DNA of 60,035 nucleotides, the filler included, from Rhizaria sp. SCN 62-66 (lineage: Eukaryota), in NCBI GenBank assembly GCA_001724265.1. It is 5 parts of 5 records of this genome, joined end to end, with 100 filler letters (N's around TTAATTAATTAA, not from the genome) between each part and the next. Parts side by side here need not be neighbours in the genome. Positions count along the whole stretch, not along the records: positions 30,076 to 48,414 come from MEDY01000568.1; 4 more parts are not named here. The stretch is one strand, 5' to 3'. Below are positions 1,961 to 57,495 of the stretch, in pieces. Under the pieces are notes generated by a model, which saw nothing but the letters and a program-made list of their open reading frames with translations, did not search any database and was not told where the DNA came from. Both the position numbers and the translations under genes were made by a program. How positions within the stretch are numbered: the first letter of the stretch is position 1; each line of letters starts with the position of its first letter.

Positions 1961-2307
1961 GTTGTGCGCCGCCGCAACGTGAGTTTGTACGCTTCTGAGT
2001 CAGCGAGACTCAAGAATCTGAAGCTTGATGCTGAGCAGCGTTGCTACTGTGCGTATGTGGCAGCGTCGTGAGTCGATATGTAGTTATGTATTGGAGTATG
2101 AGTTAATTTGAAGAATACAGTGATATATGTTAGTGCATTGAACATGCTAGCTCTTATTAAGTTTACTTTTCAAGTTCGCCACTTATAGCTCGAAGGTGAC
2201 TGTGGGCATTGCTGGCTCGATTGATCTCACAAATTGGCCGCTTAATTTCAAGTTGATTTTGACTTGAAGTAGATCGTCAACTATTTGTATATTCAAGACG
2301 CAAAAAG

Positions 2308-3774
2308 ATGGACAACTCAAGCAGTCTTGGTGAAGACTCGTTTGAAGGCTCGTTCGCGTCTTTCCTTGCATCTACCCGCAAAGCTCATGACGAGTTTGAC
2401 GACAACGCACCTGCTACATCCCGAGGCGACGAGAACACACCGACCCAAACCTTGCTTAACCAGCCTCTCAAAGATGCCATCATTGCAACCGCCGGCGAGT
2501 TCACGCCATGGCCCGCCCCACACAGGCGCCACGCTGAGTCTGATCCTGTTGCCGTAGCTCCCGCCTTCCGGCTTGAGCTTTCGCGTCCCAAGCGGGCGGC
2601 TCCTAGTCCTGCCCGGCAAAAGAGCACTGGAACTATAGGAACACCGCGTCAAGGCGGCAGTACTACGCCGCATATGACTCTGCACGCGTCTGCGTCCTCC
2701 GAAAGCAGCAGTGCTTCGCAGTCGCAGCACGATTCACCCAGCAGGAACCTCTCACAGCCACACTCTCAGCACAACTCGCAGGCGGATAGCGCACCAACTC
2801 AGCGCGGCGCTGTTCAAGACGTTGTGTGGGGCACGCCGCGCGGACGCCATTTGCCGCAGCCTGCGTCACAACTGCATGAATAGCCGTATGCGATCACACG
2901 CTCGCAGTCGCAGACACCGCGTTCCTCTAGCACGGAGGTTGCAGTGTCTCAGCCCGCCACAGAAAGCGCAACGGGCGATGCTGCTGGCAGCGCGCTTGCG
3001 CTCGCAGTGCGGCGCCTCGAGGAGCTGGAGGCCGCGGCGCGCGCGCGCTCGGGCGCTCTGTCCCGCGCACTGCGCGCCAACGCAGCGGCCGAGGGCGCGC
3101 TGCAGTCGCGGCTCCGCGCCGCCGCTGCGCGCGCGCAAACGCTAGCCGCGCTGGAAGCGAGCGTTGCGGCGCTGCACGCGCGGCAAGCGGCGCTCGCGGC
3201 GGGCGCGCGGGCGGGGGCGCGCGGGGCCGCGGCCGCATCAGCTGCAAGGGCGCAGTGCGCCGCGCTGAAGGAGGACGCGGCGCGCGCGCGGCTCGCAGAG
3301 GAAGCAGTACGCGCGCACGCTGCAGCGTTGACAGCGCAGGAAACCGCGCACGAGGAAGGGCTGCGCGCAATTTTGGCGCGCCGGCGCGGCGCCGCACGGG
3401 CAGAGGAAGTGCGCCAACAGGCGCGCGAGCTGCGTGCGCGCATGGACACGAACGACCACGTCGGCGGAGGCAGCGGCGACAGTGGCAGCGTGGCCGAGCA
3501 GGAGGCTGCACAGGCCACGGCTGCGGCGGCGGCAGCTCAGGCAGAGGCGGAGGCCGTGCGGTGCGCTGCGGCGCGAGAGCGGCTGCTGCAGGCGCAGGCG
3601 CAGCGTGCGCGCGCGGAGGAGGCAGTCATCGCGGCGCGCGAAGGTGGCAGCGCCGGGCAGCGCACTGCGGCGACAGTGGCGCTGGCGCTTGCGGCGCGGG
3701 TGCGCGAGCAGACCGGCAAGTGGGCTGAGCGGCTTGATATTATCCGTGAGCGTATGCAGATGTTTCAGCACTAA
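2308..3774 (+). CDS. Hypothetical protein with disordered N-terminus and Ala-rich coiled-coil C-terminus; one in-frame TAG at 2881-2883
   Basis: ORFs 2308-2883 and 2944-3774 share a frame and the only stop between them is TAG. The sequence turns AT-rich directly after the TAA at 3772-3774. Confidence 0.65.
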
Positions 3775-32228: not shown

Positions 32229-33550
32229 ATGTCCCACAACCTTGCGGCCAGTAGTATTGTCCCCGTGAACCAGAGTCCGATCTACGCTGCCGGAGACTGG
32301 CTCCCCATCCCGGCTGGCGCTCCCGCGAACGCTGAGGCCCTCAACCGCCTCTCACAGCCCACCAAGCGTCAGAAGGAGATTTGCAAGCAAACGTACGTTG
32401 TTAAATGATTTGATGCGTATATGTTATCTCGGTTAGTAGCGTGATGTTGTTATTCTACTTTGTTTAACCTCTCTAAAATTTGGACTCCTGCCACCATCAG
32501 GGACACGACCCTCTGCGGAGGGCTTATTTTCTTTATCACACGTATTTTCTGTATATAACGCTCACAATATCTCATTCTGACAATTTCCTTTGAAATTTCC
32601 GTGCTTACTTCATTGTCCACAGTCTGGCCCGCATTGAGACCTCTAAGCACGCCCCCCTGCCTCCGCCCGTTCTCTCCTCCGACCAGCCCCCGCTGCCGCC
32701 CGCGGCCGCCGAAGCAACCGAGCGCCTCACCGCGGTCAAACCGGGCTCGCGCACACTCCAGCGCATGCGCAACACGCTTGACCGCTATTTCCCCGCCGTC
32801 CGCGTCTCCGCATCGGGCGCGGCCGCTTCAGCCGACAGCGGCGGCGCTGACGGCGACGGCGGCGACGGCGGCGGTGGTGACGGTGACGGCGATGGCGACG
32901 CCGCTGCTGCTTCCGGTAAACCTCGCGGCGGTGGCGGCGGCGCGACGGGCCTGCAGGCAGCGCTGCAGCGCGCGGCGCACCTACGCGCCAAGGCCCCATC
33001 CCTGGCCCCGACCCCGAAGCCGCAGTACCCCGGCCGCGACCTTCGCGAGACCCCGCTCCCCGCCGCCGCTGAAGCGCGACTCGCAGCGCTGGCCAAACCG
33101 GGGCGACCGGGGCGGTGCCGCGCCAAGTACGCACACCCACCAAAGGAGCGGCATGATCTGCATGAGCGCACGGCGGTGGCGCCGGACACGCTGCGGCGGC
33201 TGGAGGAGCTCAGTAAGCCGCGGCGCGTCAATTCGCCAACGCACACCGCCGCTTTGACCGCGAATGCGCCTGCGAGTTCGAGTGCGACGGGGACGGGCAA
33301 AGGGACTGTGGGCAAGGGTGATGGCCGGCGCTAGTTACAGGGTGGTGCCGGGGAGGAGTCGCGGTCTAGGGGCGATGAGGACGCGGCTGCAGCTGCTGGA
33401 GCAATATCAACAGCGGAACCATCGGCGTCGGATGCAGCAGCAGCAATGGCAACGGCGGAGGCAGCGACTTCGGAGGCGGACACGGAACCCAAGGTGGATT
33501 CCCATGCAGATGGTGATTACGCGGATGGTGCGGAATCAGGGCAAGAGTGA
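32229..33550 (+). CDS. Protein with RLxxLxxP repeats (THEG/microtubule-binding-like); exons 32229-32392, 32623-33550; in-frame TAG at 33332-33334
   Basis: Phase-2 intron GTACGT...CAG. Repeats are ALNRLSQP, TERLTAVKP, ARLAALAKP and RRLEELSKPRR. After the TAG, 71 coding-like codons run to TGA at 33548-33550. Confidence 0.6.
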
Positions 33551-37502: not shown

Positions 37503-37585
<83 letters not shown>

Positions 37586-40225
37586 CCGGCAGCAGCAGCG
37601 CATGGCGGCAACAGCGCCGAATTTGGCGAAGGCAGTGGGTCGCAGCCGCACACTGCGAGTAGCGCCCGCGCCGCCCGACGCTCTCGCGGCGCCAACAGCG
37701 GCGGCGGGGCTGCGGTGCAGAGTTGTGATGCGTGGACGCAGACGGCCCCGCAAGTGCCTGCCGCGCTCGGGACGGTCTCCGCGCTGCTCTCCCGCGTGTG
37801 CGACGCCACGGGCGCTTTGCACGCCCGCCTACTCGCGCTGCAAAGCACTGCCGCGCGGTCCGTCTCCCGCGGCCAGCTCGAGGGCGCGCTTGCTGCGCGG
37901 TTCCCTTCCCGCGACGCACTTGCCCTCGCGCTCGCCCGGCTTGTCCGCGCGGTCCGCACCGAGCACGACCACGACCACGACGGCGTCGCCGCGGCCGGGG
38001 CCGGCGCCGGCGCGTGCGCGACGAAGGCCGACCTCCTCCGCGCAGCGGCCTCGCGCGGCGGCAAGCGACAGGTGCGCGCTCTGCGCCGGGCGCTGATTGA
38101 AGTCAAGCGCCTCGTCGCCAGGGCCATCACTGGCGCCGGAGCGGGGGACCCGGCCGCGCTCGCATCTGCGGTCGCAGCGGCAGCTGTAAACACGGTCACA
38201 GCGGGCGGCAGCGCAAGTGGCAGCGCCGCGGGGGGGCAGGCCGCTGCGGCTGCGGGCTCGTCTGCACCCGGTTTGAGCGCTAGTGCTGCGATTGACGCGG
38301 CAGCAGCGCGTGGCAGCGACCCTGCGCACGGCGACGCGAGCGACCTCGAGCTGCTCAAGGCGCTTGTCCGCATTGGACTGAACCCGCGCGAGATCGCGTC
38401 GCTGGAGCTCGGCGTGCCTGGCGCCGGCAGCTGGGGCTCCCGCGGCGCGGGCGACGGCGACGAGGACGAGGACGAGGCCGAGCTTCGCGCCGCGGTCGAC
38501 GCCGCGCGCGCGGGCCGCGGCTCGGGCGACGGCGCCGGCGGGCCCGGCAGCCCGCACGGGGACGGGCGCCGCACGACGCTGCTGCAGCGGCTGTCGGCGC
38601 GCGGCGGCACGCTCGGCATACGCGGCGGGCCCAGCAGCGCGGCGGGGTCGCGGCGGCCCAGCGGTGCCGGACTGGGCAGTCCGCACGCCGGCGGCGGCGG
38701 CGGCGGCGGCTGGGGGCACGATGGATACGGCTCTATCAGCGCCGCCGCGCTCCAGGGCCCCGGCGGCGGCGGCGCGGCGGCGGGCGCTGCTGGCGCGGGC
38801 GCGGCGGCCGCCGGCAGCAGTGCTGATTACGCGGCGCTGCTGGCCCGCGTTGAGCGTGCTGAGACGGCGCTGGAGCTGTATCTGCGCTCGGCGCGGCTCG
38901 TGCAGACGCAGCAGGGCAAGCCGTTACTCGTCCGCGGTGGGCCAGACGCGTCCGGCACCGGTGGTGGCAAATCGACATCAGGGGCGCGGGCGGGGCGCGC
39001 GTCCCGCGACTCCACCTTGTTGTCGGCACTGACCCGCACCGGCACTGGCGCTGGCGCGGGGGCGGGCAACGCTCCCGCAAGTGGCAACACAGCCGGTCTG
39101 GTGAACGAGGGCGGGCTGTGGTACGCCGACCCCACGGGCGCGGTCGGGCAAACTCTCGCAGCGTTGATGCAGCTCATGCGGCGCCGCGCTGGCGCAGATA
39201 TGGCGCGTGTCGAAGCCGCGCTGGCCGTCGCACGCGAAGCGCACGCGCGGGACGCGGCGCGAGCAGGCGGGCTCGCTGCGCGCGTGCGCGGCGACCGCGC
39301 GGCGCTGGCCGCCGCGGTGCGCGCGCTGGCCACGTCGGAGCGCAGTCTCCAGGCGCTGGAGAAGCGGATGGGCGACATCGCGGGCGGGCCCGGCGCGGCC
39401 GCGACCGGCGACGCTATGGTGGCTGAGGCCGCGCGGCGCCACGACGCGCTGGCGGGTGAAGTCGAGGCACTGCTCGCGGAGGCACGCGGGCGTGCAGATG
39501 CGCAGCGGGCGCTGCTGCAGTCGCTGGGCGGCTCCGGCCGCGGGCTTGCTGACGCCGCTGTGCAGCTGCATGCGAAGCTCTCCGCCGTTGCGGGGCGCGC
39601 GAGGGACCTTGCCGCGGCTGCGGGCGACGAGGCCGCGCGCGACCGTGCGGAGACCGAGGCGCGGCTGGCTGCGCTGGAGCGCGCTGTCGCCGCCGCTGGC
39701 CGTGGCGCGCGCGAGGCGTCCGAGGGCGTTGGGTCTGCGGGGCAACGCGTTGACGCACTCGCGCTCGCGGTTGGCATGCAGCACGGTGGCGCGGGCGAAA
39801 CCTCGCTCGCCGCGCTCGGCCCTGGTGGTGTCGCGGGCGACGGCCGCTTGGGCGGCGGCGTCGGCGCGCTGCCGTGGGCCGCGGCGCTCGTGAGCGCGGT
39901 CAAGGAGGTTGAGGCGCTCGACACCGCGCGGCTTGCAGGCGCAATGGCTTCCGTGCCCGGTGCCGGGCCCGCTGGTGGGCCCATGCCGCTGACGCGCACG
40001 TAGGCCGCCACCACGGCCGCCGGGTGGAGCGCCGGGCCTGCTGCAGCCGGAAGTGCGCGCGGGAACGCGGGCCCAGGTGTCCACGCAGGCACGGATGCTG
40101 TAATGGGTGCGGGTCAGCAAGGCCAAGAACAGACACAAGGCCAGGGTCAGGGTTATAGCAGGCCCGGGACTGCTGGACCTGGCGCGACTGTGGGCTCCGT
40201 GATGAGGCGCTCGCGTATGTTGTAA
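36327..40225 (+). CDS. Large Ala/Gly-rich protein with a C-terminal coiled coil; frame changes within the (AAC)28 tract; in-frame TAG at 40001-40003
   Basis: The frame from ATG 36327 is coding-like up to the microsatellite. After it the CAA frame (ORF 37715-40003) is coding-like and continues 73 codons past the TAG to TAA at 40223-40225. Confidence 0.6.
37503..37586. repeat. Perfect (AAC)28 microsatellite
   Basis: 84 nt of uninterrupted AAC, counted from the sequence. Confidence 0.97.
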
Positions 40226-40704
40226 AGACACTGCGGCGCCGATCGATGATTCACATTTCTTAAATATTGTCCGTGATATTGAATACATGTCGCTTTATTA
40301 TACTGTTTCGACGATATGAGCAAGGTGTCAATCCAACTGTACATCCGTGTTTGACAGCGTTAATCTTTTTAGCAATGCAACTCGACTGAGGCTTGGGGGC
40401 ATGGGAAACAATATTTGTTATTTTCTTGGCTTAGATTAATAAATTAAAGGAACTATCACATATAAAGCTGCATATTTTCCTTTATTCTACATAAATTAAA
40501 ATTTATTTTTTATTTACGTATGTTTTTGAAAACTATAGTCTTGAGTTACATAGTCATACTAGTTGTTCATACCGCAAGCCTTGGCAAAAGTGATTACGCA
40601 TGTTTGCTTAATGTATTGTTAAATAAATGCTAAAAGCTAAATAAAGTCGAGGATAATAAAATAAAAACAGTGTAAGATGAGTGAACAATGATGATGATGT
40701 CAAA

Positions 40705-43700
40705 TCACTTCGTTTGATCCGCCGCATAGTGTGCCATGACAGCTTTACGGGCATCGAGCCACGCCGCACGGCCGTTCTCACGCCAAAGCGTCCATGCACG
40801 TTGTGCTTCAGCGGCCTGTCGCTCTGCACCGTCACGCAGTGCCTTGACCGTGCGCGTTTTGAGGTCTTCGTCGCGCGCATCGTACGCGTCCACTTCAAGT
40901 GCGTGCGCCAGGGCGGTCGCGCCGTCATGGTCGCACCGCGCTGCCGCCAGAGCGCGGCCAGCAGTCGCATCAACGCTCCACCCACATGTGGCGTCTGCGT
41001 TTGTGGCAGGGGCTGTTGTGTCGCACGCCCGTGGAAGACAGCGGCAAGCGCCGGCGAAAGCGGGTGCGGGAGCCAGCCAGCCCGCGGCAACAGACGGCGA
41101 CCGCGCCTCCGAAGCGCGCTCCCGGCGCTGCTCGGTCGTTGCGTCATCAGCTATCGCGTCAAACACTCTGCCATCAAGCAGGGCCGTTAGCAGCGCGGGC
41201 TCACGGTACGCCGCTGCGGCAGCCAGCATCGTGCGCCCATGCTCGTTGGCCGCCGCGGGGCCCGCAGCATGCAGCAGTGGCGCAGGAGGCACTGCCAGCG
41301 GCGACCACGGCGCTGTTGGAAGCTCAGTGGTCGATAAGACTGGCGTAATCGCATCTGAGACCGGCGCGGGCAGTGCGGTCTCACCAGCAGCAAAACTGCG
41401 TGGGACAATGCGCCGGCCCAAAAGATCGGTCCAGGTGCCGTCAGCCCAAAAGCATGACTCCTCGCTCGCAGTGGCGCAAGACTTTGGTGTGGCGTCTGCG
41501 GGCAGCGCCACGGTCCAATTCGCGTCAACAGCGAGGCCCCAAAGCGCACGGTCCACAACAGCGGCCGCGATGGCGTGCAGTGTACGCTTGCGTGCGGGTG
41601 GGACGATGAAGCTCTCGTGTCCGCCTGCTAATGCAACCGCCGCAAGCAACGAGTTTGCATCTCCATCCTGGAGCGTGACTGGTGCTGCGGGGAAACGCCA
41701 CACGCGGTAATCGCTGCCACTCTGAGCCCACGTACTGCTGATGCCGACAAGTGCAGACTCAGCAGTCAGTGCAATGGAGTCTTCAGTTGCAAGCAGTGCC
41801 GCGAGCAGAGGCTCGTCCTGGTTAAGCACCGCAATGTGCATCGGGGGCAATCCGGGTCCAAAGGAGCGCCACTAATCCACAGTCGTGTCCGTCAACACCA
41901 TGCCCACCGTCAGCGCTGCCGTTGGCAACAGTGCGCGCCGCTCTTGTTCCGTTAATGGGCTCGCACCATTTGCGGGTACTGGCGCTGCAAGATGATTCTC
42001 GAGCAGCTCGCGCATGCACTGCAGAGGTTCGGTGTTTAGAGTCTGGTGATCTCTACTCGAGGTGCCGTTTTCACCATCGCGCACATGATTACGACGCGAC
42101 TTGGCGTAGAGCACGGCAAATGTCTCGCCGTCGCCGCACACATGCCGCGCGTACAGCCCCTTGGCACGCGCCGCACGCAGTGCGCGCAGTGCACTGCCAT
42201 CGGCCCCCGGCACAGCGCATGCGCGCGCCACATTCGCATGCATTTGCGCAATCGCGCCGGGTGACAGTGCGAAGCCGTCCTGCGCCGCCAGCGCATTCAT
42301 CAGCACCGAGCTCGCGCTGGTGGCTGGCGCAACCGCGAGCGTTCCCTTGTGCGTGGCCACCGAGATGGTCGCGCGCGCAACGTCTTGTGCAAGGAGCACC
42401 AGACCGAAAGAGCCCGCAGCGGCTGCCAGATGCAGCGGGGCGCGCTGATCGAGGCCCGCGGTGGTTGAGAGCAGCGCTGCACTCGCGCCGGACCAGGCCC
42501 CCGCTGCTGTCAGTGGTGACGTGCTAAGGCGCTGGTTACGGAACCAGGCATCACCCACGTCCACGGGAGACCAGGATGAGAGGGGCGCGCCCGTCAACAG
42601 AGCAACCAGTGCACAGCGCTCCAGCGCGGCCGTCGAAGCCACCGTCGCAGTAGAGCCTTCCTCCCCGCGCCATAGCGCGTACACATGCTGAGACAGTGCA
42701 GCACCCGCAGTCGACTCAGCCTCAGTTACAGAGCCGGTCTGCGCAAGCGCGGCGGCGGCGAGCAACTCTCCGGCCAGTGCCTCATCGGCGTGGTAACACA
42801 GCCGGTGCAGCAGCGTCAGTCCGCCCGCTGCGCGCGCCATGAGTCCGCCGGGCTGTGCACAGTCGCGTTGACCGTCGCGAGCGCAGTGCAGAGTCTCCGC
42901 GGCCGTGGCGGCGGCGATGGCGGCGAGCGTGGCGGCCGCGGGCGCCTGTGCAACGTTGTCGCAGGGCGCGCGGCACCGCGGACCGGGGGCGCTGCCGGAG
43001 CTGGTGCCCAGGCTCAGCAATGGCGTGCGGCCGCGCGCGCAGCAGTGCGACAGCGTGGGAAACAACGCTGCACTGGGGCCGCCGTGGGCACACACTGCAC
43101 GCACCGCTGGCAGCGCTGCACAGGCTGCGGGCGCCACAGGCTCAGCGCAACATAAAAGCAGCGGGGCAAGTGCACGGAGCGCACCGACGCGGCAGGCTGC
43201 AGCGGCAGCGTGCAAGGGCGTCGCGCCCGCAAAGAACGATGTCAGCCCCGTGGGCAGCGGCGCGCGGGGCGCGGCGGCTAAATTCGCCATGGCACTGTCG
43301 TTGATAAGCGGGTCACAAGAGCGCGGGGGTGGCAGCAGAGCTGGGGGCCACCAGAGCATGCGCCTCGCAGTCGCAGCGCTGGTTTCTGGATATAAGCTGG
43401 CGGTGAGAGTGACGGGGCGGGCGATGAGCGCCAGCAGCGCGGCAGCAAGCGCGAGGCGGCCGCGCGCAACAGCCGCAGCGACAATACACTCGCCATCTGC
43501 CACTGGAAGCGCGAACGACACCGGCGGGCGCGATGGATACTGCGGCCGCTGCGACTGCAACGGGTTTGAGGGCGACGTGTGGCCATCTTGCCAAAGCGCG
43601 GCTGTGGCCCCAGAGCGCAGCAGCAGCGCAACAAGGCGCACACAGCGGCGCTCTTTGCGCGACAACGGCAAGGTACGCAGCCATGCCACAGTGGCCGCAG

Positions 43701-45210
43701 TATGTGAGTGGACATTTGGGCGCGATTGACACAGCAAGACATCGGTGGCGCCGGGGGGCCACAAAGTCGAGGACGACGTCGTATCGCACGGACAGCGCAC
43801 TGTAGCACTTGCTGTTGCAGGCGCGGTAGTGCTACAAGTGCTTGCAATGTTGGCCACATGTGCGGCAACTGCGGCTGCAGCCGTGGCAGCAGCTGTGGCT
43901 TTGCCAGTCGCAGATGCGCACCGACGCCTCGACTGCGGAGCAGAGCCCAGCGGTGGGAGGAGCGACTGCAGCAACCACGGATCACTGTTGTCGCCATCGT
44001 CGTCCCCGTCGTTGTTGTCGCCGCCGTGATCGTGGTCGTCGTATGCTTCGTCGTCGGTCTCAGCGCCAGCGTCAACCCACGCATCGCCAGCGTTGATCTC
44101 GCGTGGACTCTAGTCAGAATATGCCGTTTGTGCCAAAAGTGCGGCGGCAACGGAGCCCATCGCTTTCTCGTCAGCGCCGTTGATTTCGCTCTCAGCAACA
44201 GAAGATGCAAGGTTCCCCGCCGCAGACACTGGCGGCGCAGCGCAAGCGCGTGTGTCGGTGCGCAACGCGCGTAGCGGAGCCAGACACGCGCCCAGCGCAG
44301 TCGTCCACTCGCTCGCTGCTGACAGCGGCAGCGGCGCTGCAGAGCTCAGGACGCCGGATTCACTCTCAGCATGTGCGGTGGAGTGTGCAGGAGCTGAGGA
44401 CGTCACGGACAACTGCGCCGCCACAATCTGTGTTCCCGTAGCCTCCGTCGTCGTCATAGCAGCGCCGATGTGGCTGGCGCTGGCGTGGCAGCTGTCTTCG
44501 CAGGGTCGCATATGCACGGGATACGCAGTTACAGCGACCGCGGCCTCGGGCGCCGTGCCAGGGCCTGCGAGGCGCATGTCAGGGTCCGCGCCTAGCGCCA
44601 ACAGCGCCGCCGCGGTGCGCGCGCGGCCGGCAAAGCAGGCGGTGTAGAGCGGTGACCGCGCGGGAGAGATGAGCAGGTCCGTGCAGAGAGGGTAAAACAG
44701 GTACTTGCCGCTCGATACAGACGTCGACTAGCTCCTCTGTGCCTGGCCGTGAGACAATGAGACGGAAGCGCGCACAAGCAACGGGTGCGGGACGCCGTCG
44801 ACGCGCGCGCCGCCCTCCTTGACGAGGACTGTGAGCGCTGCCGAGGCGGCGCGTTCGTGCGGAATGGCAGCCCAAGTTGACAGCACGCAGAGGTCGGAGC
44901 ACGTCTCCACGGCATCGGGGTCGGCGCCCGCCGCAAGCATCGCGCGCAGCAGCGTCAACAGCTGCGACACAGTCTCTTCGCGCCCAGCATTCAATGAGTC
45001 AACAGCAGTGGCGTCAAAAATGGCGTCTGACGCGGAGTGCGGATGCGAACATGATCGAGCAAGCAGCATCAGCGGGGACGTGTCCGTAGCCGCTGAGGCG
45101 GGAATGTAGTTCGGGTCAGCGCCGCGAAAAAGCAAGTCCGCCGCAAGGGATAGGTCGCCTAAAGCGCACGCCGCGTGAAACGCCCTGGACAAGGCAGCAA
45201 CGTCGTCCAT
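40705..45210 (-). CDS. Ankyrin-repeat protein (about 1500 aa) with three in-frame TAGs (44728-44730, 44110-44112, 41872-41874)
   Basis: Four track ORFs (44728-45294, 44110-44601, 41872-43974, 40705-41850) share one frame and are separated only by TAG. Ankyrin-like motifs are spread along the whole length (AFHAACALGDLSLAADLLFRGADPN, SPLYTACFAGRARTAAALLALGADPD, TPLHAAAAAC, APLHLAAAAG, PPMHIAVLNQD). Ends in TGA. Confidence 0.78.
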
Positions 45211-46049: not shown

Positions 46050-47195
46050 TTAGTCATCAGAGATCTTCTCGAACTTGGAAGTCTGCACCTTCTGGTTCAT
46101 CTTGGCGAGCGCAGACTGGAAGCGTTTCTGGTGGTCGAACCGGCACTCGTGCTCATCCGCGTACCTGTGCCGCCCGCAGAACACGTACCCGCAGCGGCAC
46201 TCGACGCCCGCCAGGTTGAGCTTGCGCTGGCACACGAAGCACCGGTCGCGGTGCTCCTGCACGGGACGCTTGCCCTTGTTCCACCGGTACACGGCCTGCG
46301 TCTTGACGAAGGCGTATCGCAGCCGCTCGCGCGGGGACCGCTTGAGGTAACCGGACCGCTGCGCCGCCGTCGTCTCCGCAGCAGCGGCGGCGGCGGCCTT
46401 GCGAGCCGACGGGGTGGCGGGGGTCGACGCGGCGGCCGCGGCCGCCGCCGCGGCCGCAGCGGCGTTCATCGACGTCTGCTTGTAGCACTTGGAGCACATG
46501 TTGCCCGTGCTGGCGTCGCCGAAGAAGCCGCAGCTCTTGACACACAGCGTGCGCTCAGCTGGAACAGGAGCCGCGCTCGACGCAGTGGTGCCGGCGCCAG
46601 CGCTCGCGGACGCCGCCGCAGCGACGGGCGCGGGGGCGGGGGCGGCGGCGGTCTCGGCGCCTGCGTTGACGAGCACGGTGGCGAGTGCGTCGAAGGTGGG
46701 CAGCGCGGGGGCGGTCTCGTCGACCGAGAGATACTGCTTGCCGTCGAGCGTGATCTCCTCGAAGCCCAGCACCTGCGCGAGCGCGAGCGCGCCGGGCACG
46801 TTGACGACAAACTTCTTGAGGATGATGTTATCGAGGCGCAGCTGGCGCAGCTTCTTGTCACCCGGCTTGGCGGCGATGGCGCTGAGCATCTTCGCGATGG
46901 CCTTGGTGGAGCCGGTGAGTACGTCGCCCGCAGCGCCCGCCGCGCGCATGGCCGTCACGGCCGCGCGCACGCGGGCAGGGAACGAGTCGGGGTCCTCAGC
47001 CGCGGCGCCTGACGCCGAGTCCGTCGCAGTGGCCGCAGAGGCGGCGGCGTCGGTCGGAGTGGGGGTCGCGGAGGAGGAGGGCGCGGTGGACGAAGTTGTG
47101 GAGTTGGCGCCGCCTGTGGTGGCGTTGGGCGTGCCGCTGGGGGCGTCGGGACGGGGCGTGGGGGTGTCGTTGCCGTCGGACATTTGCACAGACAT
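46050..47195 (-). CDS. PUB domain + A20 zinc finger + AN1 zinc finger protein
   Basis: PUB-like KMLSAIAAKPGDKKLRQLRLDN...VPGALALAQVLGF; A20 LCVKSCGFFGDASTGNMCSKCYK; AN1 RCFVCQRKLNLAGVECRCGYVFCGRHRYADEHECRFD. Stop is TAA. Confidence 0.88.
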   Translation of the reverse strand: MSVQMSDGNDTPTPRPDAPSGTPNATTGGANSTTSSTAPSSSATPTPTDAAASAATATDSASGAAAEDPDSFPARVRAAVTAMRAAGAAGDVLTGSTKAIAKMLSAIAAKPGDKKLRQLRLDNIILKKFVVNVPGALALAQVLGFEEITLDGKQYLSVDETAPALPTFDALATVLVNAGAETAAAPAPAPVAAAASASAGAGTTASSAAPVPAERTLCVKSCGFFGDASTGNMCSKCYKQTSMNAAAAAAAAAAAASTPATPSARKAAAAAAAETTAAQRSGYLKRSPRERLRYAFVKTQAVYRWNKGKRPVQEHRDRCFVCQRKLNLAGVECRCGYVFCGRHRYADEHECRFDHQKRFQSALAKMNQKVQTSKFEKISDD

Positions 47196-48319
47196 CGTTG
47201 CGGCGGCGGCTCGGGGGGGAAGGCTACGGTGCCGGCGGGCTGAGGCTAGGGAACGAAACGGGGGGGGGTTGTAGTGTCTGCTGCTCAGAGAGCGAGAGAG
47301 CAGGTTAAGGGGGGAAGGGGGGAAAAGAAAATATAAAATCCAGAGCGGAGACAAGAGCTGCGTGACTGGTAAACCTGGCCGAGTGCTGCTTAGAGCGCTA
47401 AGGAGCGGCTGTAAGCGCGACAAACGCCGAGAGACAGGAAAGGGCGACGAGCGGTGAAACAAGGAGAGATGATATCGAAGAGGGAAAATAAGAGAAAGTC
47501 GAGGTTAGAAGGGGCAAATGGAAACACAAGCCGTGGATTCAGCAACAAAAAATATCGGGATTTTCTGTTATGGAGTACTTCATCGCGCTTGTTGCCAGCT
47601 AATGTGTCGTCCGCGTGTGAGCTACTGCAGGTCAAATGCCACGTCGCCGGGTACACAAGTGAAATAAGCTGGATGCGCCCCTTGCAAACCACATCAAGAC
47701 ACACGAGCACGCTCTGCATGTTTCGGCTGTCTCGGCAGGCGCAGAGAAGATGCGTATGCACCATCAGCAAACATGATCCACGTCTCCGACCGGAGGGAAG
47801 TGACAAACCCATGAAAGAGAGGTCGCGTCCCTCCGGATGTCAAGGTTATATACGCGCCCCCGCCGCGTTAATCAGGCCCATAAGCAGTGCAATGCAGTAG
47901 AACATAACATGCAAGTGTAGAACCAAAGACGAAACATGCTGCAACGCTGGTTGAGGGGCAAATATAGCAGTGGATGAGAATGGGGAAGCGCTGAAACGGA
48001 CCGATCCATTCGAGAACCTTCTCACCACCTTGAGTCCCGCCCTAACGCCCCCGCACGAGAACCGAAAAATTGCAACAAATCTTAAAACAACATGTTAATC
48101 CTTATGAAGAGTGCAGTGAATAGTAAAGACGAGGGGTTGGCGCTCCAGTGGCGATTCCTGCAAACTGCCCTGTCGAGGGCCACAGGGGAACGGTTTGTGG
48201 TGGCTTAGAGGTGACCGTGGCCAACAGAGTAATAAATGGTCATTTCAGGGGACAGATAGAGCAGATCAAGATGTTTAAACGAAAGTGGGTGTATGTAAAG
48301 AAGGAAAATGATCAACACT

Positions 48320-49404: not shown

Positions 49405-49822
49405 TCAATTTTTCCACATCGATAAAACACAATGGCAGTCAAGAGAAAAAATGCAAAGGAATACTCTAGTAAGTGCCGACGTTGACGGGGGGGGACATCA
49501 TTTTAAATTAGGACCTATATCTTTATGGAAATTGTTTTGGTTTGTGTAGGGGGCTAGTGCTTATCGAGCCAAAAATGGCTGAAGCAGCGCGCTGTAGTTC
49601 CGGAAAATTCCAGAGATAACGAAATGGTATAAGTAGTTAAGGAACTCCAATATATTGTCTTTCTCCCTGTGCTACACACTCACTACGAGTCACCAACGAA
49701 CGCACTCGACAGGAGGAAGAAAAGATATAAAAAAACAACGGGACGGTTGCTTAAGGCGGAGACCATACTGCTAACCGCACTCTAACGTTCTCAAAGCAAT
49801 GGTACCAAAAAGTCAACAGTCT

Positions 49823-52800
49823 CTACCAAGAGTATTTGCTTTCGATTGGATCAACAGAGCTCGGCGGAACACGAATGATCTTGAACAAGCAAAATGCGTC
49901 CTCCAATTGGCTGTAGACATTGAGATCTACAATTGGTGTAGTACCAGTAACCACTAGTTCATTCACAGAGGCGGGACCTAGGCATGGCATAGTGGGGCCG
50001 CCAAACGAGAGCTCGCCCGCATGTGCGCCGTCGTTGACGACAAGAATGAAGTAGGTTGTATTGGACGGCATGTACGGATTGTTGGGGTCGTAGTCAAACT
50101 CTTCAGAGGACGGCATGTGGAAGAGGCGCAGGGCAACAGGATCCGTATGGTTTTTAGGCCACTCGTCCGTATAGTGAGCGGTATTGTTGTCGTATATGAC
50201 TGGCTGATCTAAGGTAGATAGGTAGAAGTTGCGGCCGTTGCGAAGTGGCTTGCTCTCGCGTGTGCCGATAAGATCTGGGCCCAAAAGACGGAAAACGTAA
50301 GGACGAGCTTCGTCGGTTAGAACTGGCGGATCACTCTGATGGGTGTCGAACAGAAGCGAGTCAATCGCGCGCAGCTTCTGTGGGAGGCCTTTTGCGGTTG
50401 GAAGGCGCAATATTTCCACGTCGCTGCACGTGCTGCTATACTGTGAACTTCCTATGCAAATGCCGCTGTCCATTACAAGGCCGAGCGAGTCAGGCGCCAC
50501 GGCTGCGATAAAGGTATCTCCACTGGTACCCTCAAGAGACTTGCAGCGTGCCATGCAAGGAAACGCGTCCTCCAACTGTACTCGGGAGGCTGAACCAAAG
50601 ACGTCGGCGCCAGCCACGATGGTCGCGCCCAGATGCGGTGTCATCACAAGACTAGCGCGTCGCAAAATATCCTGATCATGGATGCTGCGAAAAATGGGCG
50701 CATGGTCGGGGAAGGCAGTCTCGAGCGGCATTGGGAAAAAGCGAGACGATCCGTGAGGAAGGGTGCAGGAAATATGCAGCTGCTGCGCGCGGCATGCGGC
50801 CGCTACCGTCAGATTGTCCCGGACAAATAGCCATACTTGCTCGCCATGTGCAGACGAAGTCGGAGCTTGAATGCTGTCAAACCCCTCCAAAAATGGGAAG
50901 AAGGGATCAAAGACGTGCTCGAAAGACGCTTCCTCGCATTCGCCTGATGCTTCGGCGTGACAGGACAGAACACGGGTACCAAAAAAATATGCAATAACTT
51001 GGTTCTTAGCTCGGCGTAGGCGAGATGGCTTGCGTAGGTGACTCAATGAAACCGAGCTTTGAAACACGATCACACCGGATGATCGACGCGACAGATCTTG
51101 CGGCGGCAACGGCCAACTGAGAGGGACGCGGTCAAGGAACAAGCTGTTCTGGTGCTGCATGACCATGTATCGACTAGTATTTACGCGCGAGGACGCAAAC
51201 CACTCAAGATAGACGTAGTCGCCAAACTTCAGGTCGGACGATTCCGCAGAGACGAGAGGATCGGTGCAATACGAGCCACCGCTGGCCTGACAAATAGTAT
51301 CTTGGAAGTACAAGCCCTTTTTACGCAAGGTCGAATTCATTTCGGGGGGGAATAAATCTTCGCGGGCAAATAGGTCACTGATATCGGCAACTTCGATACT
51401 TGTAGGAACCGGTGCGTCCGGTACTGTGAGACTCCACAATTTAAGCCCGTCGAGATTTCCGTCCTTCATATCCTGGCCAGCAACGGGTGAGCCTCCAAGA
51501 TACCATTCTGTCATTGACGCCGACATTTGGTTGAGCGTGCTACGCGCATCCGTCTGCATCTTACTGCTCGCGTCGACCGACATCGACGCCGAGAGGCTGA
51601 AGAACCTTCCCGAAGCAGAAGCTGAGGCACTGCCGCCGATGAGCTCCTGCTGGAACTTGGAGAAGGAATCTTGTGAGAGAGTGTATCGTACACTCGCAAC
51701 ACCACCCATCACAACATTGGTAGTCAGATGAGTTCCATATCGTTCCAGAAAGCTCATGTAGGTCACATTTGCTTCGGGGTGTGTTGCCGGATCAGACTCA
51801 GGTAGCGCTGCGACAGCCTCGATAAACGCGTCGTCGAGCTGGAACGTGGGTCGGAGGCGCGCCCGATAAACAGATGTGACGCCATCAAGTTGAGTGTATA
51901 CCGAATTACTCGACGACATCTGACTAACCGTATTCTGATACGTGGCACTGGCCGAGAAGCGAGCTTCCACGGATATTTTCTTGGTGAATTTAGCGCCGAC
52001 AGAGCCGGCGAAGGAAACCGACCGGTCGAGGGAGCTTAGATACTCGGACTGGCTCGAATATGTTGTGCTGATAGAGGTGAATGTGGCAGCCGTCTCGTCG
52101 GCCACATCGAAATGATCACTGACGAAACGGCGCCCGTCGCCGGAAAACCGTCCGTCGTTAAAAGTGCATGCCACGACGGGTGCGCGATAACCGGGATCTA
52201 GCGCGCCCGTCATTTCGCGGGGGTTCGCTTCGAAAATGTTGTATCCACGTCCCAAGTAGCCGATGTTGGCATAACTCATTGTCGTGGGACTGAAAGGAGT
52301 GTTTACAGCTCGTTTCGCTGTAGGCAAAAGGAGCAACATAGCGTGAGCAAAGCGAACTCTTATAATTACTTAACCTCGCGTACACATCACGTTGCGCATC
52401 TCAGCTTCCTTTGCCTCTGCTTCTGCTGTCGCTTGCGGAACGCTTTTAGCGAGACGCACATTGGCATAATCGCGAGCGAGGGTTGCTGTATAATAATAAT
52501 AGATAAAAATCGAGCTCATCAGCAATAGCAAAATATGAAGGCTAGCTTAGAAACGAACCTTCAGCACTCTGGGCAAGAACGTCGTTGATCGACGCCGTTG
52601 CGGCATGCTCGACGTATCCTTCGGCGTTAGCGGCGTTGAGGACGTCGGAGCGAAGTTGTGCCTCGGTCTCAAGCAGGAGTGTCAGGGCTGGGGTGTCCGC
52701 ATTCGCACTGCTTGCAGTCGGTGTGGGTGCCAGTCGAATTTGCGAGGGAGCCCCCGCCACTGTGCAGACGCTCAATGCTCCCACGAAAAGAATGGCTACC

Positions 52801-53173: not shown

Positions 53174-56100
53174 ATGTCGAGATGGGCAGCTTTGTTTGCT
53201 GTGGTCTCACTTGCATGCATTATGGCGGCAGCAGACGCACAGGCAGACACCGCTCCGATGTGTACCTGGAAGGATTTTGTTTCCACAGTCGACACTGGTG
53301 AGACACACTTGGCGTCGGCCTCTTTTGGTCTAGCCGCCTATCACACTGTTTACGACTCCCTAACTAATGGTACGCCGGAGGAAAAGCTTTTCTAACCCTG
53401 AGACGGTTGCCCATGGTCATGGCATGTCGTGTTCTCTATGTTTATGTCTCCTTCTTCGCCCCATGGTCGTACTCAAAAGATCGCTGTAGGCACGGAACTC
53501 GACGCTGTCGACCTCTTTATCGAGCTACAGGCAGAGACCTTAGTCAATGTCACTATGAATAAGGCGGGTGTATTCGTCGACGCGGAGGCTGGCCGTCTGC
53601 TTGCTCTTTCAGAGCAACGCGGGGCAGAAAGTGCGCCACGACGCTTGACGACGCTTGATCTCGCGTCGCTAACGATATGGTGTTTAGGTAACACGACTCT
53701 TGCAGCTATGCAAGCTCGTACAATTTTGGACACGGCTGGACTTCACGCTACTGCTGAGGTGGCTGACGCGGAAGCTCGAGCACGTTTCGGTTCGTAGGGA
53801 TGATACTGAGAGATTTTGATCCGCTAATATCGTATGACCTTTTATTAGCTCGCGTACGCAGCGCTGCTCCCATCGAGCTGCCCGAGACTGCTGCAAGCGC
53901 CCCCAACATACAATATGTGGGCCGCGGCTACGACCTGATTAAGGGTTGCCCGCGCGAGATCGGCGGGTCCGTCGACCAAGGCTTTCGACTACCCGTTGTT
54001 GACCTGACATACCGCCTGGGTCGGTTTACGCCCGACGGCCTGTATGCCCTGCCTGATGCTGTGGAATTTCGAGGAATGCCCAGCGTCGCGTTATCGTCGA
54101 GTGTCTTGCACATCGCCACAGAGAGTCAGTTTCGTTCGCAGCTGGAGCGGAGTGTTTCTCTTTCGACGTCGCTCGAGGCCGGTAGGTATGCTCAAGCGAG
54201 TTTCGCTGGGTCCTCTTCCTACCAGCAGACTGTGGAGGCCATTTCCAATGTTGATACAAATTTTGTTGATATCGAGGCGTCGGCCATAAGCTATGAAGCC
54301 TCAATCCGACACTCAGCGCAGTCACGGAATCTTCCTTTGACGCTGGACTTTCGCAACGCGGTAAAGAATCTTCCCACGGTCTACGTGACCGGCGACGACA
54401 ACTCGACGTTGGCTGCGTTGGTTGACGCCTATGGTACACACTTTGTTGTTGAAGTAGTCATGGGCGGCGTCGGTATCGAGCGGCACGTTCTCACAAGCTC
54501 TGACCTCAACACCTACAAGGCCACTGTTGCTTCTCAGGCGGTGGATGCTTCCGGCTCGGTGCAATTTGCAGGCGGTAGCGCTTCAATGGGCTTTGATTAC
54601 AAAAGTACCCAGCAGTCCGAAGCTCGCGGTGCACTGGCCCAAAGTTCATCCTCCAGGACAGATTGGTACTATGGTGGGCAGCCGGGAGACAGCGCTTTCG
54701 GTGATGATGAAGGCTCCACCGAAGCGCTAAAGGACTGGGCCTCGTATGTTGGTGACAAACCGGTACCGATCAAGTACAAAGTGACAGACCTGCCCGACGT
54801 ACTTAATACCTTTACCTTCCCCGAAGACGAGGGCATTGATTTGAAGCGTACTTCATTGTGGACCTACCTTACCGCACTTATCGCTCCGTACAATGAGGCT
54901 GTGTCCATGCGAATCGCAACGTCCAGCAACGTCAACAACGATACCCTCCGTTATGGTGACTTTTTGCTTCTTAATGGTGTGTCGTTCATCCCTTCCGACG
55001 ATCCCGACGAGGTTCTGCAACCGCAAGCAAACACTCCTTCCCTCCTGCGGGTCTACAACACGTTTCTCAAGCATGAAGGCGTGCGTGACATCGTATTTGC
55101 CAGCATGTCGCCCTCAACCTGCCCCACATTGGTTGCCGACTTTAACGCACGCAACGCCACTGCCGCTCCTCTTCTATTCCGGGATATACACGTTGTGCAC
55201 GACAATCGTCCCTTTGCGAAACATATGCCAGCGATCGATGCCCATTCATCTCCAGTCATTTTATACGTTTTGTACGGACGCGATTGGCAGCCCGGTTTCG
55301 TTCGCGAGCAGCAAGATGACATGGTTTGTGTCATGACAATCGCCAGGAAGCCGGTGCAGGGGTTGCAACCTCTGCCGGACGATGTGGTCGATTCTTCCAG
55401 CTTATATTCTTCTCAACTCCTTCCTCTGGACACTATTTTTCCACACCGTAGTGCATTTAATGGAGACTCGAACAAGCTGAAGAACTGGGGCCCGGTTGAG
55501 ACAGTATTTGGGTTTCCTCCGTCGCTTGTGTCGGCTCCCAGTCCTTCAGTTCATTACCAACTCTACGCCCACAACTGGTTTAGCATAAGCAACGCAACCA
55601 CGATGGATGTGTCTGATGCGCTTCAAGCCTCATGTCCCATGCCGATGGGCGACATCTACGACGATATGGAAACGCTGAGCGTAGATTTTACAAACGTCTG
55701 CAACGACTTCTGCGCCTGTCAGTCCGTCAATAGCGCAGCCTTTTTACAGCCAGCATCGGAGGTGAGCACAGCATTCCCTGTGTGCAATGCTACCAACGTT
55801 TGTTGGGCTGGCTTCCAGACCGAGTTTCCGCTCATCAATCACTCCGATCCATTTGAGACGTCCCCAAACCGATCTACGCTGCATCCTCGCGGATTCGAAG
55901 CTTTTGCATGGACCGTAATCCCTCGATATGTAGCAAACTACAGTTTCTTCGAAGTATTATCAATTGCGATTTTTACTATCGCGCCGGAAATGGATTCGCC
56001 CGCTCCTGGATGGAATGGCGGATATTGGTTAGCGGAGGCGCAGTTTATGGAACCGCTGAACGTATCTTCCAATCCTCGCAATGGAGGGCGCTTTTCTTTT

Positions 56101-57495
56101 TGTGAACCAGTTGGAGGCGTTGCGGCGCTATTTGTTGGAATGGACTCCAAGTACTGTCAACGCATCCGCGGGCTCATCTTTGTCAAGAAAGACGCTTACG
56201 TGTTTTATGATGAGACCTACAGCGCTATGGCGGGAAAAATTTTGGTTATGCCCAGCTTTGCTGAGTCCCTTTCCGCCATCGCTTTAGCCAACAACATGGT
56301 CAATCCTGATGTTGATCCGCTCTATCCGCCTACTTACGAGGGTGATTTTCCCTTCTCTACGTATTTTGAGATTTCGATGGAGCAGTTTTTCCATATCGAG
56401 GAGCACCAATTCAAGCTTGCTTCTGCGGTGGCTTCGGAGCACCTTGACGTCGACGAGCTCCCAAATATGTATCACGACGTTGTCCGTCCGTATCTTTGGA
56501 GACTAGACTCTGTCAATCCAGAGTTGAACATTGAGAAGTCAGTTCTCCAGTATGGTCAAACGGTTCATTTGACGTCAACCTTCGGGGGCGTGTACTACAA
56601 CCAAGCTGGACTCTACCGTGAGGATCGCGGAACTATTGATCCAAAAAATGGCAGTTTTCCTTATGCCACTTTCGTCGTTCGTTCAACGGACCCAGATGTA
56701 TCACGCGGCCCCGTGCAAACCGGAGACAGTATTTTTTTGCAGGTTCGTTCGGAGGGAGCGCAGATGAATGAATCCTTCAGTATGCCGATTCCCCGCGTAC
56801 TTGCGCCGTGGGGAGGCCTGATCCCGGCACAATCATTCTCGTACGCTCATGTACGAGATGTGGTTCGCGGAAGCGACCCCCAGTGGGAGACCTCGTCTGG
56901 CATTAAACTCCTACGAGTTCCTCGCGAGAAAGTTGTGCTCAATGACCATTTCTCGAATATCGGCGGCAGTACTAAAAAAGCAGCTATTGAGCTCAGGCGA
57001 TATGTGTTGCGCTCGTGGCTGCGCATGGAGGAGCCGGACTCTTTAAATTTGCTTGTGCTTCGATTCGAGGGGTCTTTACTTCCACTGGTCATCGACGTAA
57101 ACGCATTCCGAGGCGTCATGCACACGATTGTTCGTTCTCACTCTCGAACGGATCCGGAGAGCGTCTGTTTTTCGATTGCGGTACTGCTTGGAGTGTTCTC
57201 GGACGCGGGGCAGCCATCCGAGACAAACCCAGGCGTTTGGCGTGTTGACGTTCCCGACGGCATGAACGTTACTCTCATTTGGGACGCTCCTTATCGTAAA
57301 GATCAGTCACTTATCCCCGCTTGGGAACAAAGCGATTGGGATTTACAGCGTCCTCATCTTGCCCTTCACGGTCCTTCTGAAGCCGTTCTGCGAGGTGCCG
57401 ACATCCGCGTTGACAATTTGTGCTTTCGATTGCCGCAAGCGGCAATTGCCGACCCATTAAAGGATCCCTACTATATACTTCCGTGTTCTGAATAA
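53174..57495 (+). CDS. Secreted MACPF/perforin-like protein 2; exons 53174-53369, 53490-53789, 53849-57495
   Basis: Signal-peptide-like MSRWAALFAVVSLACIMAAADA; YVGRGYDLIKGCP...DQGFRLPV; MACPF signature YGTHFVVEVVMGG. Two phase-1 introns (120 and 59 nt). Stop is TAA. Confidence 0.87.

Follow-up and report, generated by a model that had tools for sequence, protein, structure and literature searches.

Nuclear genetic codes in which UAG alone has been reassigned are described for the rhizarian exLh (leucine) and for Iotanema spirale (glutamine) (PMC5304391), and further for phyllopharyngean ciliates (leucine and glutamine), Protocruzia (glutamine), and Scotinosphaera (serine) (PMC11687900). Glutamate is assigned to UAG in peritrich ciliates, where both UAA and UAG (UAR) encode this residue (PMC11687900), in Blastocrithidia, likewise with UAR as glutamate (PMC12153298), and in Oligohymenophorea sp. 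PL0344, where UAA specifies lysine, UAG specifies glutamate, and ten tRNA genes with a CUA anticodon (tRNA(CUA)) most resemble tRNA-Glu (PMC10553269). We analysed a window of 60,035 nucleotides, made of several short contigs joined together, from the genome of Rhizaria sp. SCN 62-66 (34.9 Mb in 714 contigs); on contig C568 it holds an ankyrin-repeat gene with three in-frame TAG codons (minus strand, ATG at 45210 to TGA at 40705). With the window and further loci of this genome taken together, we are confident that UAG is a sense codon in this organism. Judging from the sequence evidence, it probably encodes glutamate (Glu, E), and UAA and UGA still serve as stops.

The proposed code shares with the UAG-only codes that UAG is sense, that UAA and UGA terminate, and that a tRNA with a CUA anticodon is either predicted or found; in the accounts of exLh and Iotanema the tRNA gene is only predicted, whereas here it was found. 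The GTS motif of eRF1 is altered both in Iotanema (T32G) and here (T32S). The residue, by contrast, is probably glutamate, which is absent from that list of UAG-only codes. Usage differs as well: UAG makes up ~0.5% of glutamate codons here (42 vs ~8,400), while in UAG-only ciliates it is reported as 6.5–32% of its codon family and in 78–91% of genes. With peritrichs, PL0344, and Blastocrithidia the glutamate meaning of UAG would be held in common, but UAA is also a sense codon in those organisms and is the main stop here (38/55 gene ends). Compared with the ten tRNA(CUA) genes of PL0344, there is one copy here, in a GC-rich host genome. We found no report of UAG as glutamate with UAA and UGA both kept, in a search that left most subscription journals and supplements outside its reach. 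If true, a GC-rich non-ciliate would add a nuclear code that is not yet listed (UAG as glutamate; UAA and UGA as stops), and both its decoding tRNA and its eRF1 are identified, which is lacking for earlier non-ciliate UAG-only cases.

Gene ends and internal TAG codons were tallied over ~2.5% of the genome. Among 55 clean gene ends in a strict tally, 38 were TAA, 17 were TGA, and none was TAG. A looser tally of 84 ends gave 53 TAA, 27 TGA, and four TAG; in three of these four a TGA stands earlier in the same frame, and the fourth is probably intronic. TAA and TGA thus very probably remain terminators. A code with UAR as glutamate was rejected since TAA is the commonest gene end (38/55). Pattern searches that admitted a UUA anticodon confirmed no candidate, with four TTTAA matches outside known tRNAs left uninspected. 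Because UAG is gone from the sampled gene ends and is present within essential genes, a code change is indicated rather than background suppression.

Internal codons were examined with a composition model (Viterbi) that treats the three stops alike and that superseded a first codon-score tally contaminated with antisense frames. The model was run on ~890 kb in 145 stretches, chosen in part for kinases, dyneins, and tRNAs; six kinase or eRF1 loci were included in the tally since they were already known to carry TAG. It called 52 TAG, 25 TAA, and 23 TGA among 199,697 internal codons. Inspected singly, most of the TAA and TGA calls could be put down to a gene end, an intron, or a wrong frame; the majority of TAG codons, in contrast, were flanked by coding sequence on both sides. 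With the surroundings of TAA and TGA masked, 43 TAG (one of which, in L011, lies in a mis-called frame) were left in 189,416 internal codons, or ~0.2 per 1000 codons. The TAG rate dropped with codon bias, from 0.53 per 1000 codons in genes with a third-position GC content (GC3) below 0.7 to 0.064 at GC3 of 0.9 or above. Besides the ankyrin gene, further genes with two or three TAGs were detected (L148, L013, L052, and L108). As a side observation, a TKL kinase frame (L063 549–551, minus strand) has an in-frame TAA with coding-like sequence on one side and a poly-Q tract on the other; this is the sole internal TAA that was left unexplained, with a gene end, an intron, or an error as candidates.

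Single in-frame TAGs occur in intact genes for eRF1, Thg1, and a Ubc6/UBE2J-type E2, all three of which align gap-free across their TAG, and in five kinase domains (C16, C161, C148, C49, and C18). Of 142 kinase matches, 11 contained TAG: four inside domains, one in an insert, five intronic, and one (C77) unassigned. The TAA and TGA codons inside kinase matches that were cut out were intronic. A second kinase search showed the C18 TAG to be real and also flagged C208 and C505. TAGs at intron ends inside domain matches were identified on C6, C9, C68, C108, and C390. For the dynein AAA_6 domain, two of 18 matches had TAG, one at an intron end (C390) and one close to the segment start, and the 20 dynein stretches contributed none of the 52 internal TAGs; the single TAG among 54 kinesin matches is an intron end.

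The residue was read from alignment columns at these sites. At the eRF1 TAG, which corresponds to human E107, 117 homologues show E in 107, D in nine, V in one, and Q in none. The TAG of Thg1 (L146 1304–2182, G000:C25) takes the place of the E77 codon, with E in 4/4 solved homologues, and E77 is described as the third conserved active-site carboxylate (PMC3701042); about 170 low-complexity residues are inserted in the catalytic domain of this protein, and a Thg1 homologue search returned one protein only, a fragment of the same gene. The kinase hinge column with TAG is E in 32/42 of the genome's own domains and in 104/119 homologues. When seven columns were combined, E was ahead of Q by ~4.7 log10 units, assuming independent columns, and no TAG column showed Trp. 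Four listed alignments have D or S at the E2 site, and the TAG sites of PTEN-C2 and CIMR had no usable homologue column. In the neighbourhood of TAG, glutamine (Gln, Q) occurs at 0.79 per 10 residues, compared with 1.86 expected for CAG.

Of the 23 candidates from a pattern search for a matching tRNA, a single one, with a CUA anticodon, was accepted as a tRNA by ARAGORN (G000:C84:76008-76080, minus strand; L005 1489–1561), on a contig that also carries kinase and kinesin genes. It scores 58 bits against the Rfam tRNA model, similar to the genome's tRNA-Glu(CUC), is single-copy by DNA search of the genome, and is followed 3' by an oligo-T terminator. Among the 34 other tRNA sequences recovered, a set that is incomplete in lacking Tyr, Ser, Phe, Pro, and Val, tRNA-Glu(CUC) was the best match (47/73 identities, with the acceptor ends and T arm in common), compared with 33 and 29 identities for the tRNA-Gln genes. 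Among phages and E. coli, the annotated sequences that matched it best were tRNA-Glu, at weak E values of 0.1–7. In the predicted fold the variable loop has four bases and lacks base 47, and U11-A24, U13-G22, and A46 are present; these three features and the absence of base 47 are given as glutamate determinants in E. coli (PMC9976931). The tRNA has C32-A38, whereas position 38 is C in the genome's tRNA-Glu(CUC). Suppression of UAG by human tRNA-Glu(CUA) increased over 20-fold on the change to C32-A38, and an optimised variant inserted ~95% Glu and no Gln (PMC12204705). The tRNA found here and that amber suppressor have in common the glutamate type, the CUA anticodon, and C32-A38, but differ at pair 30-40, which is A-U here and G-C in the engineered tRNA. 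On the features of the tRNA, with no search made for PylRS, pyrrolysine decoding was rejected, as the 'Pyl' label of ARAGORN reflects the anticodon alone, the first pair is U1-A72 and not G1-C72, and the body is of glutamate type (PMC9976931). Over ~60 bases, the D arm of tRNA(CUA) is closer to bacterial tRNA-Glu (73–77%) than to the genome's own tRNA-Glu(CUC); an old paralogue, an organelle, or transfer are candidates for its source.

The eRF1 search gave three matches, namely one eRF1 gene and two pelota exons. The TAG of the eRF1 gene (G000:C63, L113 1594–1596, minus strand) lies in the N-domain exon of a gene that ends in TAA, and it recurs in a separate public contig that is identical at 1626/1626 bases; the codon after it is the only AAA lysine codon in that exon. 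When compared with the 117 homologues, the protein shows T32S (GTS to GSS; T in 117/117), G57S, and T58K, so that GTASNIKS reads SKASNIKS, while E55, NIKS, S70, and YxCxxxF are retained. Iotanema eRF1 carries T32G, which is thought to weaken UAG binding (PMC5304391). In the closest eRF1 relative, P0124, T32 is retained, K58 is present as well, and residue 107 is V. Two public metagenome proteins, P0001 and P0124, are 82–84% identical to our calmodulin-kinase-like (CaMK) and eRF1 proteins, and this suggests one relative that could serve as an outgroup for dating the change.

Within the window, the ankyrin frame comprises 1501 codons plus the stop and encodes a degenerate ankyrin-repeat protein with Ala-rich and low-complexity inserts; its TGA terminator (40705..40707) is followed by AT-rich DNA, and the adjoining genes have GC-rich exons and AT-rich introns. 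Its TAGs are codon 161 (44728..44730, between two ankyrin repeats), codon 367 (44110..44112), and codon 1113 (41872..41874), all on the minus strand, as are the features below. A preliminary description of this DNA had joined separate open reading frames into this one frame, without giving the strand, and had noted the lack of frameshifts and of internal TAA or TGA; both hold across the 1501 codons, and the peptides it quoted are present as stated. In 300 base shuffles of the frame, the longest TAA- and TGA-free stretch across all frames reached 650 codons (mean 360), and the shuffled frame held ~13.5 TAG on average, compared with three in the gene. The run is thus longer and the TAGs fewer than in shuffles, which argues that the frame is coding and that TAG is depleted in it. 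The stop-neutral model also kept the gene as one coding segment of 1501 codons. With a GC3 of 0.68, the gene is among the least biased sampled, and its 2 TAG per 1000 codons lie at the high end of the TAG rate.

Two clear ankyrin repeats lie far apart, at residues 10–35 (45106..45183; weak Pfam Ank) and 185–211 (44578..44658), followed by fainter repeats later in the protein. An ankyrin-like half repeat lies directly after TAG 1113 (residues 1120–1141, 41788..41853; Ank_3 E 0.008, below cut-off). An acidic D/G/N loop (residues 386–410, 43981..44055) was read from the sequence. A Pfam search of the read-through protein, proposed with the Ank_2 family in mind, gave a divided answer: over the whole length none of Ank, Ank_2, and Ank_3 reached its cut-off, whereas residues 1–270 read through TAG 161 reached 30.1 bits for Ank (cut-off 21.1) and also passed for Ank_3. 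The pieces either side of TAG 161, taken separately, scored 18 and 14.5 bits, under the Ank cut-off. The repeat reported to be split after TAG 44728 does exist but is not cut by the TAG; it follows TAG 161 but precedes the next ATG (M212), which means that gene calling under the standard code omits it, and it is translatable only by read-through.

We disagree with the earlier view of the ankyrin gene as the strongest single test case. An alignment of orthologues at its TAGs had been suggested, but a search of 1.84 billion protein representatives found no orthologue; the seven matches were four pieces of the gene itself and three generic ankyrin proteins. The residue at the ankyrin TAGs therefore cannot be inferred from homologues. 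When the single-base changes that lead from the gene's own codons to each stop were counted, neutral decay would yield TAG for 3/3 stops with a probability of 0.12–0.14; the intact frame that was raised against a decaying pseudogene is real. With its weak domain matches as well, the ankyrin gene by itself is little proof that TAG is sense, a claim that is well supported by other genes and by tRNA(CUA).

Other assemblies and contigs of sequencing runs add to the picture of this gene. Four public predicted proteins are 100% identical to it, with ends and restarts that coincide with the three TAGs; public gene calls of this host are fragmented at TAG. A contig of run X3 (kind of run not given) spans TAG 41872 without difference. 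Two contigs of run X2 also reach this TAG, with too few letters on one side to be counted, and X2 and X4 hold only small shares. Contigs of a polyA library overlap 40691–40924 (run X1), 42210–42490, and 42789–43550. PolyA-library contigs cover stretches downstream of one, two, and three of the TAGs, although DNA can occur in such libraries. The sole variant listed within the frame in X1 and X3 is at 43024, a silent change in the third base of Thr 729.

How UAG might have acquired this meaning can be sketched as follows. UAG would have been lost from gene ends and have come back within genes at low frequency, as a disfavoured codon, chiefly in genes of weak codon bias and at low-constraint sites. 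The tRNA(CUA), the product of a single-copy Pol III gene and with the body of a tRNA-Glu, would receive glutamate from glutamyl-tRNA synthetase and compete with eRF1 at UAG. New UAG codons would arise silently from GAG and, where the residue matters little, as tolerated changes from CAG and other neighbours, with glutamate probably the residue at the constrained sites. The ankyrin gene would then encode one intact protein of 1501 residues with three UAG; its full translation, like the efficiency of read-through, is here presumed from sequence features.

Several observations weigh against a simple glutamate reading. Two variable kinase columns favour Q: the CaMK site is Q in the closest relatives P0001 and P0002, and the top 50 homologues include 16 Q, 14 K, and 3 E; the Nek site is Q in Nek1 and MST1, several TAGs lie within Q-rich or poly-Q tracts, and the kinase hinge is S in KSR and Q in TNNI3K. 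The closest eRF1 relative, P0124 (84% identical), has V at the TAG column, yeast eRF1 E107A is viable (PMC4381064), and Thg1 E77 does not bind metal (PMC3701042). The flanks of TAG differ from those of GAG (P 0.002–0.006) and from CAG flanks (P < 0.001); no clear winner came out of a 20-way flank test. Among the RNA contigs listed, none bridges an ankyrin TAG, although this lack of cover is uninformative. Human eRF1 with T32S is little affected at each of the three stops (PMC3632111), and reduced UAG recognition by our eRF1 is therefore not established; this eRF1 may still recognise UAG, which would be consistent with the rarity of the codon.

These points bear on two readings that keep UAG as a codon but change what it stands for. 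In one, UAG would be ambiguous or only partly reassigned, with the Glu-type tRNA(CUA) opposed by an omnipotent eRF1 and by Gln insertion through mischarging or a near-cognate tRNA-Gln(CUG). It would account for a TAG that is very rare, falls with codon bias, and is missing from the dynein stretches, for flanks that fit neither GAG nor CAG, and for the co-occurrence of E-type and Q-type sites, and it agrees with the retained eRF1 motifs, the mild effect of human T32S (PMC3632111), and the common Gln mischarging of bacterial amber tRNAs (PMC9976931). We nonetheless find it unlikely, given that genes with two or three TAGs exist and would be penalised by low read-through, that TAG closes 0/55 gene ends, and that human tRNA-Glu(CUA) inserts ~95% Glu and no Gln (PMC12204705). 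That UAG simply encodes glutamine, as in Iotanema and two phyllopharyngean ciliates, with the E columns as tolerated E-to-Q changes, appears improbable: each of the three sites under most conservation would have to have undergone such a change, while no TAG lies at a conserved Q; Q is found in 0/117 eRF1 homologues and is sparse in the TAG flanks, and tRNA(CUA) is distant from the genome's tRNA-Gln genes, which begin G1-C72 and end U73. The pull in its direction comes from CAG to TAG being a single transition, from the Q residues of the closest CaMK relatives, Nek1, and MST1, from the poly-Q tracts, and from the U1-A72, U35, and G73 of tRNA(CUA) when set against the bacterial Gln determinants (the 1-72 pair, U35, and the discriminator; PMC9976931); however, U1-A72 is common to both tRNA-Glu genes of this genome.

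Two further readings would deny that these TAGs are translated at all. Removal in RNA, as the ends of short in-frame introns, or A-to-I editing to Trp is very unlikely, even though many TAGs in domain matches did prove to be intron ends, donor-like words stand 45 and 210 bases (in-frame distances) upstream of TAG 161 and TAG 1113, and bridging RNA contigs are missing among those listed. The 60 bases preceding the three ankyrin TAGs have a GC content of 0.57–0.65, far above the median of 0.36 (95th percentile 0.46) of 149 intron-like gaps with a median length of 166, and this makes introns unlikely there; the gap-free alignments across the eRF1, Thg1, and E2 TAGs and the absence of any Trp column speak against removal and editing elsewhere. 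The standard code, with the ankyrin gene as a young pseudogene or the TAGs as G-to-T damage or assembly errors, is largely refuted and in our view extremely unlikely. It can draw on the 0.12–0.14 chance of three TAGs under decay and on the missing orthologue, but the only eRF1 gene found would be knocked out, and the tRNA(CUA) and the 0/55 TAG ends would go unexplained. Damage predicts GAA-to-TAA and GGA-to-TGA changes too, whereas the TAA and TGA in the cut-out kinase matches were intronic. As for error, the TAGs recur in other assemblies (which may have a common source with the window) and the listed variant at 43024 is silent.

Bacterial RF2 is autoregulated through a frameshift at an internal UGA. 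The eRF1 gene invites a comparison, as both release-factor genes carry an early in-frame stop that the factor itself may read; in the case of eRF1, no frameshift would be needed, the competitor would be a cognate tRNA, and the regulation is hypothetical. Excess eRF1 would terminate at its own in-frame UAG and so lower eRF1 synthesis. A wider proposal, which we regard as doubtful, is that of an early-stage code in which a Glu-type tRNA(CUA) tuned by C32-A38, and not a loss of UAG recognition by eRF1, drives UAG to glutamate, with the UAG of eRF1 autoregulating the factor and setting read-through genome-wide. The chance of a TAG in a gene of the length and bias of eRF1 is ~3–7%. A metagenome scan with eRF1 returned 10 loci, one being the same gene and nine distant (45–64%), with none seen to have TAG at the site; no stable RNA structure follows the eRF1 TAG (z 0.09), and our literature search turned up no published eRF1 gene with UAG inside its frame. 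With its rare UAG and near-intact eRF1, this genome would suit tests of stop capture after loss versus an ambiguous stage, and of whether a tRNA alone can drive a code change.

The host lineage is likely rhizarian, based on sequence affinities. The best reliably named CaMK homologue is from Plasmodiophora, which falls in the same clade in a quick, unfinished tree. The 18S rRNA gene (L025 1501–5945, G000:C706) spans 4.4 kb, is AT-rich and highly divergent, and has four group I introns called by Rfam. Markers described for Rhizaria or Cercozoa include a polyubiquitin insertion, an rpl1 insertion, and an 18S deletion (PMC6133090); no polyubiquitin junction was found in the sampled loci. The presence of at least 11 loci for dynein heavy chains suggests that the host is a flagellate. 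Activated-sludge runs contain near-identical sequence, so source material may be obtainable.

Elsewhere in the window, where no tRNA or Rfam family was found, three lone in-frame TAGs were detected on the plus strand. One (2881..2883) lies in a frame at 2263–3774 that ends in TAA, on a different contig from the ankyrin gene. The other two are on the ankyrin gene's contig, at 33332..33334 in a frame at 32594–33550 ending in TGA, and at 40001..40003 in the convergent neighbour (37505–40225), where 73 more codons of the same style follow before a TAA. The region 600–36300 carries intron-bearing genes, including a cyclophilin with TPR (ending in TAA) and a P-type Ca-ATPase, with exons that read without in-frame TAG. 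Presumably a proteasome beta subunit and an acyl-CoA dehydrogenase lie there as well, and their exons also read without in-frame TAG. A protein with PUB, A20 zinc finger, and AN1 zinc finger domains is encoded at 46050–47504 (minus strand), and its 3' flank has a short repeat with several in-frame TAA. Two MACPF-domain genes, apparently intron-less, are arranged divergently at 49751–52369 (minus strand) and 53767–57495 (plus strand); they are 31% identical over the domain, lie in surroundings of lower GC (~53%), and one of them has a TAG 24 codons ahead of a TAA, either of which may be its end.

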